This document shows, one piece after another, positions 20,270 through 26,713 of a stretch of DNA of 64,000 bases; the first letter of the stretch is position 1, and each line of letters begins with the position of its first letter. Position numbers and translations under genes: made by a program. Source of the DNA: Planctomycetota bacterium (GTDB lineage Bacteria; Planctomycetota; PLA2; JAEUHO01); NCBI GenBank assembly GCA_965223505.1, contig CBDCWP010000039.1, positions 288,001-352,000 of the forward strand, given 5' to 3'. The notes under the pieces are model-generated. The model was not told the DNA's origin. It made no database searches and saw only the letters and a list, made by a program, of their open reading frames with translations.

Positions 20270-21546
20270 ATGGCGTGTTGCGCCCAATGCGATGGCGGGC
20301 TCCAGGCTCACGAACACCAGGCGGCTGCTCTTCGATGGGGCGTGTCGTTCGCCGACGCAGGGCCCTCTGCTGACCCGTTCTTCAGGGCGGCGTCAGTCGG
20401 GGACCTTGTAGCGAAGGCAGTGCCGCGAGGGGGCAACTCCTGGCCCCGCCGGGATGTTCATAGCGGGCTGATGACCTACTACTTGGACTACTCCGACGGC
20501 GGGTCGGGAACCACCTCTCCGAATTCGGCCCGTCTTGACGAGTTGGGTGAGTTCGCCTGTATGCACGAGAAGAAGATGACGATGAGCTTCCTTGGTTGGA
20601 CCAAGGGGACGACGAAGAAGAGCCTTGGGACTTGAAGGACGAGGACAAGCCCGAGGAAGTTGCACAGTGCTGTTGCAAGGTGCAGTACGCCCACATACGG
20701 GTCATGAAGAACGAGGAAGAGAGGGGCTAGTTCCGCCTGTATGCACGAGAAGAAGATGACGATGAGCTTCCTTGGTTGGACCAAGGGGACGACGAAGAAG
20801 AGCCTTGGGACTTGAAGGACGAGGACAAGCCCGAGGAAGTTGCACAGTGCTGTTGCAAGGTGCAGTACGCCCACATACGGGTCATGAAGAACGAGGAAGA
20901 GAGGGGCTACGCTCGATCGAGATTCAGGGTAAAAGTGAGGATGTCGTACAAGCCAGGCGACGAGAACCCGGACAAGTGCTCTCTCGTCTGGGAGGAGCGT
21001 ACTTCGAGGACGTACCACGTCCCGCCTCGTACCACTGATGGTGCCATCACGGCGACTCCTCCGGAGGACGAGATTGAGGTGCCCCAGGGGCCGACGCAGC
21101 CGGGCGCAATCGAGCCCGACCTTACTCCTGAGTGGGTCGATGTGAGCAAGCAGGCGCGCAAGACACCCGGATGGAAGAACCCTGGCGCTGGCGTTGCAGA
21201 CGAGCCCAGCTGGAATGATCGACTGCCGACGAGCGGCTGCCCCGAGCGCGTCATTTGGCGGAAACTTGACGAGCCGGGCGCGCCAAAGAAGGGGTGGCCG
21301 CGAACGCTTCAGGTGAAGATCACGATCAAGAATGGGGCAAGCTGCGCCGCGTCGACGGTCCTGAAGTTCCGGCAGCACATTAACGGTCAGGGCCGGGTCA
21401 CGACTGACCCATCGCATACGAGTGGAAATTGGCGAAACCCAGGCGTCATTTCTGTCGAGCCGGGCACCGAACAGCCCGACCCCGAGGGCTGGCTGGAGCC
21501 AAAGGCGGGGGACAAGGATGCGAAACCGAAGGATGACGGGAAGTAG
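20270..21546 (+). pseudogene. Hypothetical CCxxC-headed protein (365 aa when repaired) interrupted by a ~180-bp tandem duplication
   Basis: GAGGAGG SD, MACCAQC start; removing 20550-20728 joins ORF 20270 to ORF ..21546 in frame (1098 nt). Confidence 0.7.
20554..20909 (+). repeat. Tandem direct repeat: 176 bp exact (20554-20729 = 20734-20909)
   Basis: Identical sequence at offset 180. Confidence 0.97.
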
Positions 21547-22555: not shown

Positions 22556-23056
22556 CTACTGTCGCTCAATGGTCGAGATGAGCGCTTCGGCTCGCTTTCG
22601 TGCGTCCCCTGATGAGCCGTCGCGGATCGCCTTGATGGAACGTAGGTGCATCGGGTCGGCGAGGTCCTCCAAGATCGTGAGTATCTCGTCCACGCGACTC
22701 CCGCTCTTCGACTCCATGTCCCAATGCACTAGATTGGCGACCAGGGCGGCGCGGCGAGCTCCATTGGTCTGACGAACCGCCTTGATCAACGTTGGCCGAC
22801 ACGAGACCCAATCACCCTCGCGAACCACTCGAGCGGCAAGTCCTGCTGCGTTGTCATTCGCGCCTGTGAGAGCGGCTTCCCACCTTTCGCGTGCTTGCGA
22901 GTCATCACCGCTTCGCATCATCAGCCGGGCGTAGATCATCTGCTGCCAGGCATCCCCTGCGTCTTCCTCCAGTCGGCTCGACGCGAAGACAATCGCATCC
23001 TTGCCAGGTTGGATCATCCCCGAGAGATAGCGCTTGTGTCCCCTACGCGTTAGGCC
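22556..23056 (-). pseudogene. Helical/HEAT-like hypothetical protein, probably 5'-truncated by the transposon (alternative start ATG 23017)
   Basis: Frame stays open from ATG 23017 up to the transposon end. Confidence 0.45.
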
Positions 23057-24149
23057 GCGTCCGCCAAGCGGAAACTAGTGTTGATAAGCGCCCTCTCCGG
23101 AACTGTAGATAGCCGTGCTTGCAGAGCGTTCTCTGCGTCGCGCTGCGGTCGATTGACGCGCGCTCGATGCACGTCGGCATTCTAGCGTTTCTTTCCTTGA
23201 ATGTCTTGAGCGCGGCATCGGTCTCGAACTTCAGATCGTGCTCAAATGCCGTTCTCTCTTGCCTCGTGATCGGCCGGCGGTCTTCAAGAGCCTCCGCCGG
23301 CGTCGGCCCAGTCGCACCCCATGGCCTCGCCGTCGTATTCGCAACGAGCAAGGCGTCGTCGAGGTTTTGAGGTAGCCAGATGCGGGGATGTCCTTCCATC
23401 TGCGCGATGTGCTGTACACGTCGCTTGAAGTTCCCGCCGCTGCGCTCGCACGCGCCGTTGTAGGCGGGCGTGTACGGCGGCGACGTGAGTGGCGTGATGC
23501 CGTGCTCCTCGAGCAACGCGGCCGTCTGTTCCGAGCGAAACGCGCCCGCGTTGTCCTTCTTCAGAATCAGCGGCGCTCCGAACAGCGTGATCAAAGCGAG
23601 CAGCGCCGCGCACACAGTCTTCGTCTTCTCGCCCCGGCAGGCTACGGCCGCCAGCTGCGCTCCGCTTCCGAGATCGCGAACCAGGAACAGTCGATCCTTG
23701 CCCTGCCAGAGGCCAGCCTTGGGCCTGGTGAAGTCCGCCGCCCACACCGCCCCGGAACGAACCCACTCTAGCCGCTTGCGATACCAGCGCCATCGACGCA
23801 GCGCCACCCGTAGCAGGCGCCTCTTCATCTCTGAAAGCACGCGATACGGTACGTCGCTGAACATGCCCCGAAGTACGGCCACACCCGAGAACGGCCCCAG
23901 CTTGAACATCGCATGCAGCACCTTCTGCCGCTTCGCTCGTGGTACGTCATCGGCCTTGCGGCCACGCTTCTCGTACACCGGCTTGCCCTGGCGAACGCGA
24001 AGCTCCCAACGCCTGATCGTTCGCTCGGCCACGCCAAGGACTCGCGCCAGGTAGGCGCGTGTTTCCTTGTCCCAGCCACTTCGCCGCATCACCTCCACGG
24101 CCTGAAGCCGGAACTTCACCTGCTCCTCGTACGACATCTTCTCGCTCAT
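23043..24149 (-). CDS. DDE-type integrase/transposase (rve) with N-terminal HTH
   Basis: LARVLGVAERTIRRW; WAADFT (D), KKDNAGAF (D), PAYNGACER (E); ATGA overlap with the upstream gene. Confidence 0.88.
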   Translation of the reverse strand: MSEKMSYEEQVKFRLQAVEVMRRSGWDKETRAYLARVLGVAERTIRRWELRVRQGKPVYEKRGRKADDVPRAKRQKVLHAMFKLGPFSGVAVLRGMFSDVPYRVLSEMKRRLLRVALRRWRWYRKRLEWVRSGAVWAADFTRPKAGLWQGKDRLFLVRDLGSGAQLAAVACRGEKTKTVCAALLALITLFGAPLILKKDNAGAFRSEQTAALLEEHGITPLTSPPYTPAYNGACERSGGNFKRRVQHIAQMEGHPRIWLPQNLDDALLVANTTARPWGATGPTPAEALEDRRPITRQERTAFEHDLKFETDAALKTFKERNARMPTCIERASIDRSATQRTLCKHGYLQFRRGRLSTLVSAWRTRPNA

Positions 24150-24541
24150 CGCTGCCTCCAACCTTCCTGGTGCGCCACATGCAGCGCGTGCCGAACCCGC
24201 GGCGCCTCGCCAAGCCCGCAATCGAAGATGTCCACCTGCGTGCGCACCACGCGCACTCGGTGCCGTAGCTTCGACACCTCGCGCTCAAGCTCATGATCGT
24301 CGTCAGGCAGCACGGCGCGCGGCCGGCCACAAGCGCCGCCTTCAAGCGCCTCAACGCCGGCCTGCAAGAACCTACGTCGAAGATCCTGGAAGCGCGTTCG
24401 GCCGATGCCCAAACGCTCGCACGCATCGCCAACGCTCCACTGCCGGCCAAGCGTGAGCAGAATCACCTTCACGCGCTCACGCGCCGTCTCGCTCGCCGAC
24501 GTGCGCGCCACCAGCGTCGGCATCTCGCTTCGCCGTCCCAT
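24146..24541 (-). CDS. HTH protein of the transposon
   Basis: RVKVILLTL.. SVGDACERLGIGRTRF..LRRR...GRP. Confidence 0.8.
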   Translation of the reverse strand: MGRRSEMPTLVARTSASETARERVKVILLTLGRQWSVGDACERLGIGRTRFQDLRRRFLQAGVEALEGGACGRPRAVLPDDDHELEREVSKLRHRVRVVRTQVDIFDCGLGEAPRVRHALHVAHQEGWRQR

Positions 24542-24983
24542 CGCCGTTTCCTTTCTCTTCAAGGCCCGTGCGCAGCGTCTTCAGCACCGTCTTGCCGCGG
24601 TGGCCGCGCTTGGCGCTGCGGCCCTTCTTCGAGGATGCCTGCTTGCGCCCGCCGCGCGCCAGCCCCAGGCTTCGATTGGCCGCACGAAGCAGGGACTGGT
24701 GCCGCCGAAGCTCCTTCTCCAGGTGCTGTTTCTCGGCCTTCAGCGCCAATATCTCGCGCTGCGGCGTCTTCTGGATGCCGCGCTTCTTCGGCTCCATCGC
24801 CCGCAGCATGCCCTTCAAAGCACGGCCTTCGAGCTGGTAGTAGCGCGAGAGCGACACGCCCATCTGCTCAGCCGCCTCGCTCGTGCCGATCTCGCCTGAG
24901 AGCGCTTCCAATATCACTGCCACGTGCTTGCGCGACGTCTTGCTCGCCGTGATCGTCGTCACGTTCTTCTTCTTCGTAGGCAT
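24477..24983 (-). CDS. HTH plus coiled-coil protein of the transposon
   Basis: VILEALSG...EAAEQMGVSLSRYYQLE.RAL; TAATG overlap with the upstream gene. Confidence 0.82.
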   Translation of the reverse strand: MPTKKKNVTTITASKTSRKHVAVILEALSGEIGTSEAAEQMGVSLSRYYQLEGRALKGMLRAMEPKKRGIQKTPQREILALKAEKQHLEKELRRHQSLLRAANRSLGLARGGRKQASSKKGRSAKRGHRGKTVLKTLRTGLEEKGNGDGTAKRDADAGGAHVGERDGA

Positions 24984-26344
24984 TACTCCTGCTCCTTCGT
25001 GGGCGCCTCGTCAAGGGCCTTGAGCTCCTCGAGCACGTCGTCGAGCACGCTCTCGCCCGGCCCCTCCTTGGCCGCATCCTTGCGCTTGCCCGATGCCCGC
25101 AAGTCGACCTCTTCGCGAACGCCGTCCTTGTCCGTCAACAGCACCTTGTCGCCCTCGGCGTGAAGCGACACCGGCTCGTCGCCGATTCGACCCGCCAGGT
25201 ACAAGGGCTTGCGCGGCTCACCGTGAAGCGCCAACTCCTTGGCGTTCGTTGCAACCGCCTCCTGCAGGGCGCTGCGCACGCTCTGCGAGGCTTCGAAGAA
25301 TCGGTCCGCTGGAACCAGGCCGCCAATGCCCTGGTGGGTGCGCTGGAAGTTGTAGAAGCCGATGAAGTGGGCAATGCGCGTCTTGGCGTCCTCCATGCCG
25401 CGGAAGATCGCTCCGTCGATCAGCTCGCGAAACAGCGTGCCCCAGAAACGCTCGATCTTGCCAAGCGTCTGCGGCCGCCTCGGCCTGGCCACGATCTGCT
25501 TGATGCCGCGCTTCTCGCAAAGCTTGCGAAACGAGCTCTTCCCGCGCCAGGTCTGATACTGCGCGCCGTTGTCGGTCAAAATCTCCTCGGGCGCGCCGAA
25601 GTTCGCGATCGCCTGCTCGAACGTCTCCCGAACCATCGCACCCGACGCCGATGCGTGAAGCCCGAAGCCCACGATGAAACGCGAGAAGTCGTCCAGGTAG
25701 CAAACCAGGTGCACGCGCCGACGCTCGCGCTTCAGGAGAAACGTGAATAGATCCGTTTGCCAAAGCTCGTTCGGTCGCTTGCGCTCGAATCGCTTCACCT
25801 TGGGCGGGTTGCGCGCCGGCGCAACCGCCTCCACCTCGTAGCCCGCTTCCTTCAGCACGCGCTGAACCGCGCCGCCTGAAACCGAGATACCCTCCGTTCG
25901 GATCAGCATGTCGTGGATCCGATCCTGGCCCCAGTCCGGATGCGCGTCCTTCATCATCAGGATCGCACGGCGCGCCGGCTCGGGCAGCCCGCTGCCCTTC
26001 ATGCCGCGCTTGTGCCCGAGCAAACCGGCGGGGCCCTCCTCCTCGAACTTGCGACGCCACGCGTACAGCGACGCCGTGCTCACGCCGATCAGCGGCGCGA
26101 ACTCCGTGGCCGCAAGCTCGCTGCGAAACCAACAGTCAAGCGCCAACAGGCGCTGCTCGCCCGTGAACTCCGCGCTACGCGATGCGTCGCTTCGCACCGT
26201 TCGAGCACGACGGCTGCGTGTGCCGCGGGGCACGTAGCCGCTCACGGCCCGCTTCCTCCGCTCGGCTCCGGCGACTTCGTCGCCTCCGCCTCCCTTCGGA
26301 AGCGGGCCGTCCAACCTCTCGGGCGCCTTCGTATCGTCGTTCAT
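24983..26344 (-). CDS. IS481-like DDE transposase
   Basis: GVSTASLYAWRRKFEEEG, HPDWG, RFER.RPNELWQTD (D), LTDNGAQY (D), PQTLGKIERF (E), YNFQRTHQGIGG.P. Confidence 0.92.
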   Translation of the reverse strand: MNDDTKAPERLDGPLPKGGGGDEVAGAERRKRAVSGYVPRGTRSRRARTVRSDASRSAEFTGEQRLLALDCWFRSELAATEFAPLIGVSTASLYAWRRKFEEEGPAGLLGHKRGMKGSGLPEPARRAILMMKDAHPDWGQDRIHDMLIRTEGISVSGGAVQRVLKEAGYEVEAVAPARNPPKVKRFERKRPNELWQTDLFTFLLKRERRRVHLVCYLDDFSRFIVGFGLHASASGAMVRETFEQAIANFGAPEEILTDNGAQYQTWRGKSSFRKLCEKRGIKQIVARPRRPQTLGKIERFWGTLFRELIDGAIFRGMEDAKTRIAHFIGFYNFQRTHQGIGGLVPADRFFEASQSVRSALQEAVATNAKELALHGEPRKPLYLAGRIGDEPVSLHAEGDKVLLTDKDGVREEVDLRASGKRKDAAKEGPGESVLDDVLEELKALDEAPTKEQE

Positions 26345-26419
26345 CTCTCTTCCTTTCCCTGGCACATAGGCCAGCCAAAGGAGAGAGCCTTATCAACACC
26401 GGTTTCCTGCCCTTCGCAG

Positions 26420-26713
26420 GTCACCTATTCGTCGAGGGAGACAGCTGCGAATGTTGCCGTCGGTAGCACGGACGTATCCCAAACGGCCTTTGTTCAAGAA
26501 GGCGACTGGGATGCGCTTGATCAGCTCCTGGCCGCCCACGACATCCCGCGGGACGACGTAGCTGACCTCAAGAAGGCGGTTGAAGCGGAGCCCGATTCGA
26601 ATGCCCTTGGTCCGCGGGTGGGTGGATGGCTCGCAAAGATGGCGAACAAGGCCTCCGAAACAGCTGTCGCGGCGGTCACGAAGGGCGTGCTCGGGTACTA
26701 CGGCATCGGCTAG
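26420..26713 (+). pseudogene. C-terminal remnant resembling AbiTii-domain (abortive infection) proteins
   Basis: NVAVGS..V.Q...GDWDAL...DLKKAVEAEP...GPRVGGWLAKM..KA...LGYYG; no start codon, begins at the transposon end. Confidence 0.55.

Follow-up and report, generated by a model that had tools for sequence, protein, structure and literature searches.

A four-gene insertion sequence with two paralogous DDE transposase genes within one inverted-repeat pair in a Planctomycetota bacterium

The DNA analysed here, called the window below, is a stretch of 64,000 nucleotides from a Planctomycetota bacterium (NCBI GenBank assembly GCA_965223505.1, contig CBDCWP010000039.1, positions 288,001 to 352,000), and our subject is a mobile element at window positions 23035–26443 whose genes, orf1 to orf4, encode two different DDE proteins (orf1 and orf4) and two small helix-turn-helix (HTH) proteins (orf2 and orf3). 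We put at about 0.7 the probability that this element is an intact, recently active and autonomous insertion sequence (IS) whose lineage is widespread, belongs to the IS3/IS481 superfamily (rve, TGT...ACA), had no description that we could find, and is built as a translationally coupled operon of two paralogous DDE transposases and small HTH proteins within one bipartite inverted-repeat pair. The unit moves as a whole, and its gene order, both catalytic triads and the structure of its ends are conserved across deep divergence. This conservation speaks, with somewhat better than even odds, for the participation of both DDE proteins in transposition, as a mixed complex or in successive steps.

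Results

Boundaries, ends and genomic copies of the element

When the five full copies in the host genome were aligned with 1.5 kb of flank each, their likeness started at 23035 (TGTGTCCCC...) and stopped at 26443 (...GGGAGACA), giving a complete IS of 3,409 bp with its genes on the minus strand. Contigs from public sequencing runs agreed with these limits, as they stopped exactly at 26443 and diverged at 23034/23035 when aligned to the window, and the read depth within the element was about five times that of the flanks. The element was present in four public runs, all seen as contigs and all from a single study, none of which was RNA; the runs aligned to the window contained neither an empty-site joint nor a junction of abutted ends such as a circle would have.

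The tips of the element are TGT...ACA, and its imperfect inverted repeats are about 65 bp long. The inverted repeat at the orf1-proximal end (inverted repeat left, IRL, in gene orientation) lies at 26379–26443 on the minus strand and consists of a terminal TGTCTCCCTCGACG and a subterminal block, and that at the orf4-proximal end (inverted repeat right, IRR) lies at 23035–23099 on the plus strand, consists of a terminal TGTGTCCCCTACG and a subterminal block, and covers the last orf4 codons. The two repeats match at 46 positions over about 66 nt and are bipartite, with a terminal block (consensus TGTSYCCC) and an inner block (GGTGTTGATAA). This end structure was kept across 8 ends from the 4 elements compared, and all four of these elements (4/4) also had the same asymmetry, one additional base at position 12 of the orf1-proximal end.

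The arms of the subterminal repeat are GGAAACTAGTGTTGATAAG at 23070–23088 on the plus strand and GGAAACCGGTGTTGATAAG at 26389–26407 on the minus strand; this is presumably the block that the transposase binds. The pair, GGAAAC-NN-GTGTTGATAAG, had been noticed in the original prediction, which took it for the ends of the element. The pair is real: a motif search of the whole window gave two matches, both at the ends, against 0.03 expected, and no internal copy of the end motif within the element. It is, however, only the inner part of the repeats, and the true ends are 23035 and 26443. The stop codon of orf4 lies 8 nt from the element tip, and the final orf4 codons (RRGRLSTLVSAW) are encoded by the subterminal block. 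Because the same block is non-coding upstream of orf1 and coding at the end of orf4, the DNA motif must be constrained in its own right.

The host genome contains, besides the five full copies, which are 98.5–100% identical, two partial copies and one short end fragment. The full copies fall into three variants: L001 is identical to L002, and L003 to L004, over all 3,409 bp, while L005 differs at 42–52 positions. All five are co-linear over their full length with all four open reading frames (ORFs) intact (5/5), and the presence of identical copies at different loci indicates recent movement as one unit. Among these copies, all 12 nucleotide differences in orf1 were synonymous, and orf4 had 29 nucleotide and 10 amino-acid differences.

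Several further features of the ends and copies were observed. A sigma-70-like site, AAGACA-17-TAGAAT, lies at window positions 23179–23207 on the minus strand and is the only one in the element (0.1 expected). This site (23207–23179) faces outward via the orf4-proximal end and could read into flanking genes or, if the ends were abutted, into orf1. As for a junction promoter across abutted ends, inspection by eye gave nothing convincing and the consensus scan gave only this outward site. In the flanks of loci L013, L015 and L087, the bases just beyond the TGT tips form inverted repeats of 7, 4 and 5 nt, respectively, which would fit either with ends located more outward in those subfamilies or with insertion into palindromic targets. 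Two inverted pairs of copies bracket longer segments of the host genome: one (G000 C26:109801-129070) encloses about 12.5 kb with a 781-bp partial copy in between, and the other (C44:275683-306808) encloses about 24 kb. Among the genes in the C26 segment are a transglutaminase-like one and one for REase_MTES_1575/DUF3320; the ORF of the latter stops about 30 bp away from the partial copy, which may have truncated it. In one low-depth contig of run X2, 23281 is joined to 25587 and 2,305 bp are left out; on one side the joint is covered by only 21 nt, too little to rely on, and the contig could be an internally deleted copy or noise.

The four-gene operon

Four co-directional, closely packed ORFs occupy window positions 23043–26365 of the minus strand, with products of 453, 168, 131 and 368 amino acids (aa), and the original prediction was correct in its description of these genes. 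The first, orf1 (24983–26344, minus strand), encodes a 453-aa IS481-like DDE transposase, the ATG start of which is supported by the N-termini of homologues. It is followed on the same strand by orf2 (24477–24983), encoding a 168-aa protein with an HTH and a predicted coiled coil, by orf3 (24146–24541), encoding a 131-aa HTH_28 protein when read from its ATG, and by orf4 (23043–24149), encoding the second DDE (rve) protein of 368 aa from an ATG also used by homologues. The junctions, likewise in agreement with the original prediction, are tight: a single base belongs to both the orf1 stop and the orf2 start (TAATG), the overlap of orf2 with orf3 is 65 nt long, and the orf3 stop and the orf4 start overlap as ATGA with a GGAGG located 6 nt upstream of the orf4 start.

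Programmed frameshifting was considered for orf3 and orf4, as orf4 is in the −1 frame relative to orf3. It was rejected: a search of the orf3/orf4 overlap for a slippery heptamer found none, and the ATGA overlap comes with its own Shine-Dalgarno sequence. With no slippery sequence in the window copy, orf3 and orf4 are probably made separately. A −1 shift cannot join orf2 to orf3 either, since the frame of orf3 is +1 with respect to that of orf2. In 9 of the 140 loci scanned, two of the nine being near-identical contigs, orf3 and orf4 were nevertheless in one uninterrupted frame, and in one of the nine orf2 was in frame as well. By analogy with the relation of OrfA to OrfAB in IS3, these single-frame loci suggest that orf3 may act as a DNA-binding head of orf4.

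The encoded proteins

Pfam assigned rve domains to orf1 (75.8 bits) and orf4 (43.3 bits), both together with HTH domains, and HTH_28 to orf3; the HTH_28 match of orf2 was sub-threshold only. The orf1 protein matched the NCBIfam IS481 model (NF033577) from end to end with 207.3 bits, below the cutoff of 224, and the IS3 model (NF033516) with 147 bits, below the cutoff of 160. All 31 aligned homologues matched the IS481 model (best E 3.3e-70), and some of them are named IS481 family by NCBI. The orf4 protein gave 68.9 bits on the IS3 model (cutoff 160) and 65 bits on the IS481 model (cutoff 224), and it and its 26 aligned homologues were all far under every NCBIfam IS-family cutoff.

As the original prediction held, both DDE triads are intact: D198/D258/E298 of orf1 was invariant in 31/31 aligned sequences, and D139/D199/E235 of orf4 in 27/27. 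In a profile comparison, orf1 and orf4 could be aligned at 95% probability across 262 columns, the catalytic triads falling in register, and the two proteins are therefore distant paralogues with the same layout. The small proteins are also paralogues, as orf2 and orf3 are 34% identical over the N-terminal 64 aa (E 8e-9).

In the AlphaFold prediction for orf1, with a mean predicted local distance difference test (pLDDT) score of 67, a disordered N-terminal segment precedes two HTH domains and an RNase H-fold core, and these are followed by a small beta domain and a conserved C-terminal helix. The orf4 model (mean pLDDT 83) has two N-terminal helical/HTH domains, an RNase H-fold core and C-terminal helices; the additional C-terminal beta domain and tail helix of orf1 are absent from orf4. 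Retroviral integrases and TnsB were the closest solved folds to the orf4 model, and sequence and fold searches of the PDB returned only the cores of these proteins. A protein atlas search returned only generic rve clusters.

With Pfam and NCBIfam, no ATPase, TnsA-like or IS66-type domain was detected in the four proteins, and the earlier statement that the element has no ATPase helper and is neither IS66 nor IS21 therefore holds. Weak matches to the model of the IS66 TnpA accessory HTH protein were found for 11/31 orf1 homologues and 1/27 orf4 homologues, and there were no matches to the IS66 transposase or TnpB.

Conservation and spread of the unit

A contig search with the single orf4 sequence gave no match, and a search with a profile of orf4 homologues gave 25 loci in reference genomes. 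At 15 of these 25 loci, orf1-orf2-orf3-orf4 were present in the same order and on the same strand, and at a further three, cut by the end of the contig, orf2-orf3-orf4 were still seen; the other seven had only an orf4-like gene, in some cases joined by a single small HTH gene. The metagenome set of 80 loci included 43 with all four genes. Where a metagenome locus had enough upstream sequence, orf3 was present in 56/58, orf2 in 42/44 and orf1 in 36/37 cases, the exceptions being L134 and L136. A single inverted-repeat pair enclosed all four genes in L010, L013, L014, L015, L017, L020, G167, G276 and several metagenome loci, and both DDE triads were intact in 42/42 complete elements.

Loci fetched with orf1 gave a consistent picture. 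Loci of 54% identity or more, given sufficient downstream DNA, contained orf2 and orf3, and orf4 was found downstream of orf1 wherever the sequence reached, or on the same contig. More distant orf1 relatives (38–45% identity) had a form with three genes, and in 10/12 loci a second rve gene lay downstream. The gene order within one repeat pair persisted down to 31% orf4 identity. Among 401 sampled genomes of the phylum, 40 had orf1 matches and 37 had orf4 matches, and the records of the members name Planctomycetota, Myxococcales, Sandaracinaceae and Candidatus Acidoferrum. A tblastn search of orf4 against plasmids gave no match, and the closest plasmid-borne IS481 transposases were only about 30% identical to orf1.

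The two transposase genes also diverged together: the pairwise identities of orf1 and orf4 correlated (Spearman 0.58; Mantel test, with 0/999 permutations reaching this value) across the 42 complete elements, a set that included several near-identical pairs. Co-linear copies, the absence of internal ends, the gene order in relatives and this joint divergence lend good support to the earlier view of one unit and not two nested ISs.

That view would have been challenged by finding the two transposases apart, each with its own terminal inverted repeats. No gene like orf1 was found on its own in any locus with sequence enough for a call. Genes like orf4 do occur alone in a few loci; those with intact triads and no orf1 neighbour are L021, L022, L023, L027, L028, L033, L134, L136 and L148. 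No recognisable inverted repeats were found around these solo genes, nor anything to suggest that they had moved recently; a single metagenome-assembled genome contributed both L022 and L023, which are 86% alike, but only inside the gene. The solo genes may descend from the second transposase as old or domesticated forms. In L022 the neighbours are pentapeptide-repeat genes on one side and ceramidase-like genes on the other. Two other loci, with about 3.1 kb between two orf1 fragments (L076) and about 1.1 kb between two orf2 fragments (L069), are probably interrupted by other mobile DNA.

Target duplication and insertion site

With the true ends defined, the trinucleotide GCT adjoins the window copy on both sides (23032–23034 on the left, 26444–26446 on the right) and weakly suggests a 3-bp target duplication. 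The original prediction, which offered AGGCC/AGGTC at best and proposed an adjacent deletion or rearrangement, was wrong on both points for this copy: GCT directly abuts both ends, and no adjacent deletion is needed. Without one GCT, a plus-strand frame would run from 22891 to 26713 across the insertion site (22891–23034 plus 26444–26713), so that the element may interrupt a small plus-strand gene and not sit between divergent genes. The frame overlaps a minus-strand ORF at 22556–23017, and therefore one of the two is spurious.

Collecting other copies thus fixed the ends to the base and gave no consistent duplication. Among 20 elements with both flanks, an exactly adjacent 3-bp direct repeat was found in one, the window copy, and no exactly adjacent repeat of at least 4 bp was found in any, although these flanks may be rearranged or chimeric. 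Repeats of 4–5 nt located 2 nt off one end were seen in 3/20 elements versus 14/360 mismatched controls, when repeats of at least 4 nt and offsets of up to 3 nt were allowed. No duplication of any kind flanked the pair of identical copies in G167 or the pair in G276. A consistent duplication was missing across the copies in the host genome, G167, G276, single metagenome loci, a four-contig set of one IS and pooled statistics. In the four-contig set, three contigs have a common left flank and different right flanks.

According to excerpts of a published account, missing duplications arise from recombination between copies and adjacent deletions (PMC11708052). The AGGT found at the left of L005 and the right of L003 hints at an inversion between the C44 copies, which would explain it, but the reciprocal pair is mismatched. 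Retention of spacer nucleotides from a circle junction, as in IS2, was also considered as the cause of the 2-nt offsets, and the three cases gave it no support.

Just upstream of this neighbourhood, at window positions 20550–20909, an acidic ORF contains a perfect-looking tandem repeat with a 180-bp unit (2.0 copies, 99% matches).

Discussion

Participation of both DDE proteins

We consider it most likely that both DDE proteins take part in transposition, because insertion sequences tend to lose genes that they do not need, and yet orf4 has kept its triad and always accompanies orf1. A mixed transpososome could form, or the labour could be divided between the two ends, the two strands, or excision and integration. 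The chemistry, by homology, would be the IS3/IS481-like cleavage that exposes a 3'-OH followed by strand transfer at the CA-3' tips, with the inner repeat block serving as the binding site. In such a scheme orf3 would be a detachable DNA-binding head of orf4, similar to IS3 OrfA/OrfAB, and orf2 an OrfA-like binding or regulatory partner coupled to orf1. A heteromeric transposase is thus what conservation at the sequence level points to. More tentatively, this could be the first prokaryotic transposon family with an obligate pair of different RNase H-fold DDE enzymes, in which orf1 and orf3/orf4 split the reaction and orf2 and orf3 bridge them. If that were true, the lack of a regular target duplication would reflect an unusual geometry of the mixed transpososome.

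Several observations weigh against the interpretation of the element as a two-transposase IS. The orf4 protein evolves faster than orf1 (mean identity 40% versus 61%), which could fit an accessory role. Genes like orf4 with intact triads lack a nearby orf1 in L021-L023, L028, L134, L136 and L148, showing that the orf4 lineage can persist alone. The lack of a consistent target duplication is unusual for DDE elements, and many of the flanks come from short-read assemblies, in which chimerism across the repeat may have occurred.

Among the alternatives, the one that survives best, which we regard as unlikely, is that orf1 is the sole transposase and orf2 to orf4 are accessory or regulatory, with orf4 acting as an inhibitor, a factor for target choice or immunity, or a helping but non-essential nuclease. 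It fits with orf1 being the best conserved protein (the 61% and 40% above), with the purely synonymous variation of orf1 between the host's own copies (12 nucleotide differences), with orf1 alone coming close to a curated IS family (207 bits, cutoff 224), and with the C-terminal beta domain and tail helix that only orf1 possesses. Genes unneeded for mobility are, however, normally lost from insertion sequences, and the orf4 triad was kept in all 42 complete elements, orf4 lay downstream of orf1 in every locus with sequence reaching that far, and the final orf4 codons are built into the inverted repeat.

The converse, that transposition is carried out by orf3 and orf4 as an IS3-like transposase split into OrfA and OrfB parts, with orf1 and orf2 as the accessory pair, seems improbable to us. 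The nine loci with a single orf3-orf4 frame, the position of orf4, which adjoins and overlaps the end of the element as transposase genes of IS3 and IS481 do, and the persistence of orf4-like genes alone in some genomes would all be expected of such a pair; the constraint on orf1 is stronger, however, and the solo genes have neither inverted repeats nor a sign of recent mobility, L022 and L023 being alike (86%) only within the gene. A chance composite of two unrelated insertion sequences, nested or fused and amplified together in the host genome only, is highly improbable, because, although orf1 and orf4 are only distant paralogues and orf4-like genes occur alone elsewhere, the same order within a single repeat pair is found at dozens of loci in several phyla down to 31% orf4 identity, with no internal ends and with orf1 and orf4 diverging together.

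Relation to known systems

Members of the IS481 family are about 1–1.3 kb long, have a single ORF and generate duplications of 4–15 bp. The present element resembles them in the end-to-end match of orf1 to the family model, in its 5'-TGT ends with both blocks, and in a transposase made without a frameshift. In excerpts of a study of such ends, those of IS3, IS481 and IS1202 are described as having a terminal cleavage block, an inner binding block and a 5'-TGT start (10.1101/2022.12.17.520857). The element differs from IS481 in its length of 3.4 kb, in its four genes including one for a second DDE protein, in the lack of a consistent duplication and in an orf1 score under the cutoff.

IS3 elements have 5'-TG...CA-3' ends and duplicate 3–5 bp. 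The likeness to this family (e.g., IS911, IS2 and IS150) lies in the TG...CA ends, the rve DDE core, the small HTH/coiled-coil gene before the DDE gene, the single reading frame for orf3 and orf4 in nine relatives, like OrfA/OrfAB, and the 3-bp flanking repeat in one copy; in contrast to IS3, the element has no slippery heptamer, its orf4 is under the IS3 cutoff, and it contains a second full transposase gene and a second small HTH gene.

In Tn7, two different catalytic proteins with neighbouring genes, TnsA and TnsB, make up the transposase, which sets a precedent for such a pair; the core of orf4 resembles TnsB by fold only. TnsA is a nuclease of the restriction-enzyme fold and not a DDE enzyme, and Tn7 requires the ATPase TnsC and target selectors, whereas our element has no ATPase, TnsA-like or target-selector gene. 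In Tn554 and the "recombinase in trio" elements, the order of the two or three paralogous recombinase genes is fixed, but these are tyrosine recombinases, while both enzymes described here are RNase H-fold DDE proteins. IS21 is likewise a multi-gene IS with an HTH and rve transposase, and orf1 and orf4 matched IS21 models weakly (30–43 bits); its helper IstB is an AAA+ ATPase, a domain absent from the four proteins of the element. The tnpA-tnpB-tnpC layout and the DDE transposase typical of IS66 are also absent.

In the literature consulted, which included excerpts of PMC10045372, we found no IS with two rve transposases; ISfinder and TnCentral lay outside this comparison, and a prior description is possible. 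Within this scope, the suggestion that the element belongs to an unclassified family holds: orf4 is under all NCBIfam cutoffs, and orf1 is borderline IS481.

Implications

The textbook IS is a minimal mobile element with one transposase between two ends. Here a second intact DDE enzyme has been kept across several phyla and in about one tenth of the sampled genomes of the host phylum, suggesting a contribution to mobility that is beyond a single enzyme. If both enzymes are required, the element would be a natural two-DDE transposase and a new case for studying how a transpososome divides strand cleavage, end choice, or excision and integration, and it could offer, in compact form, two catalytic subunits that can be tuned independently. 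At present the annotation of these 3.4-kb units reads as two unrelated "DDE-type integrase/transposase" genes with hypothetical genes beside them. Treating each unit as a single element would improve the annotation of Planctomycetota and Myxococcota genomes and would explain metagenome contig breaks of about 3.4 kb in length.

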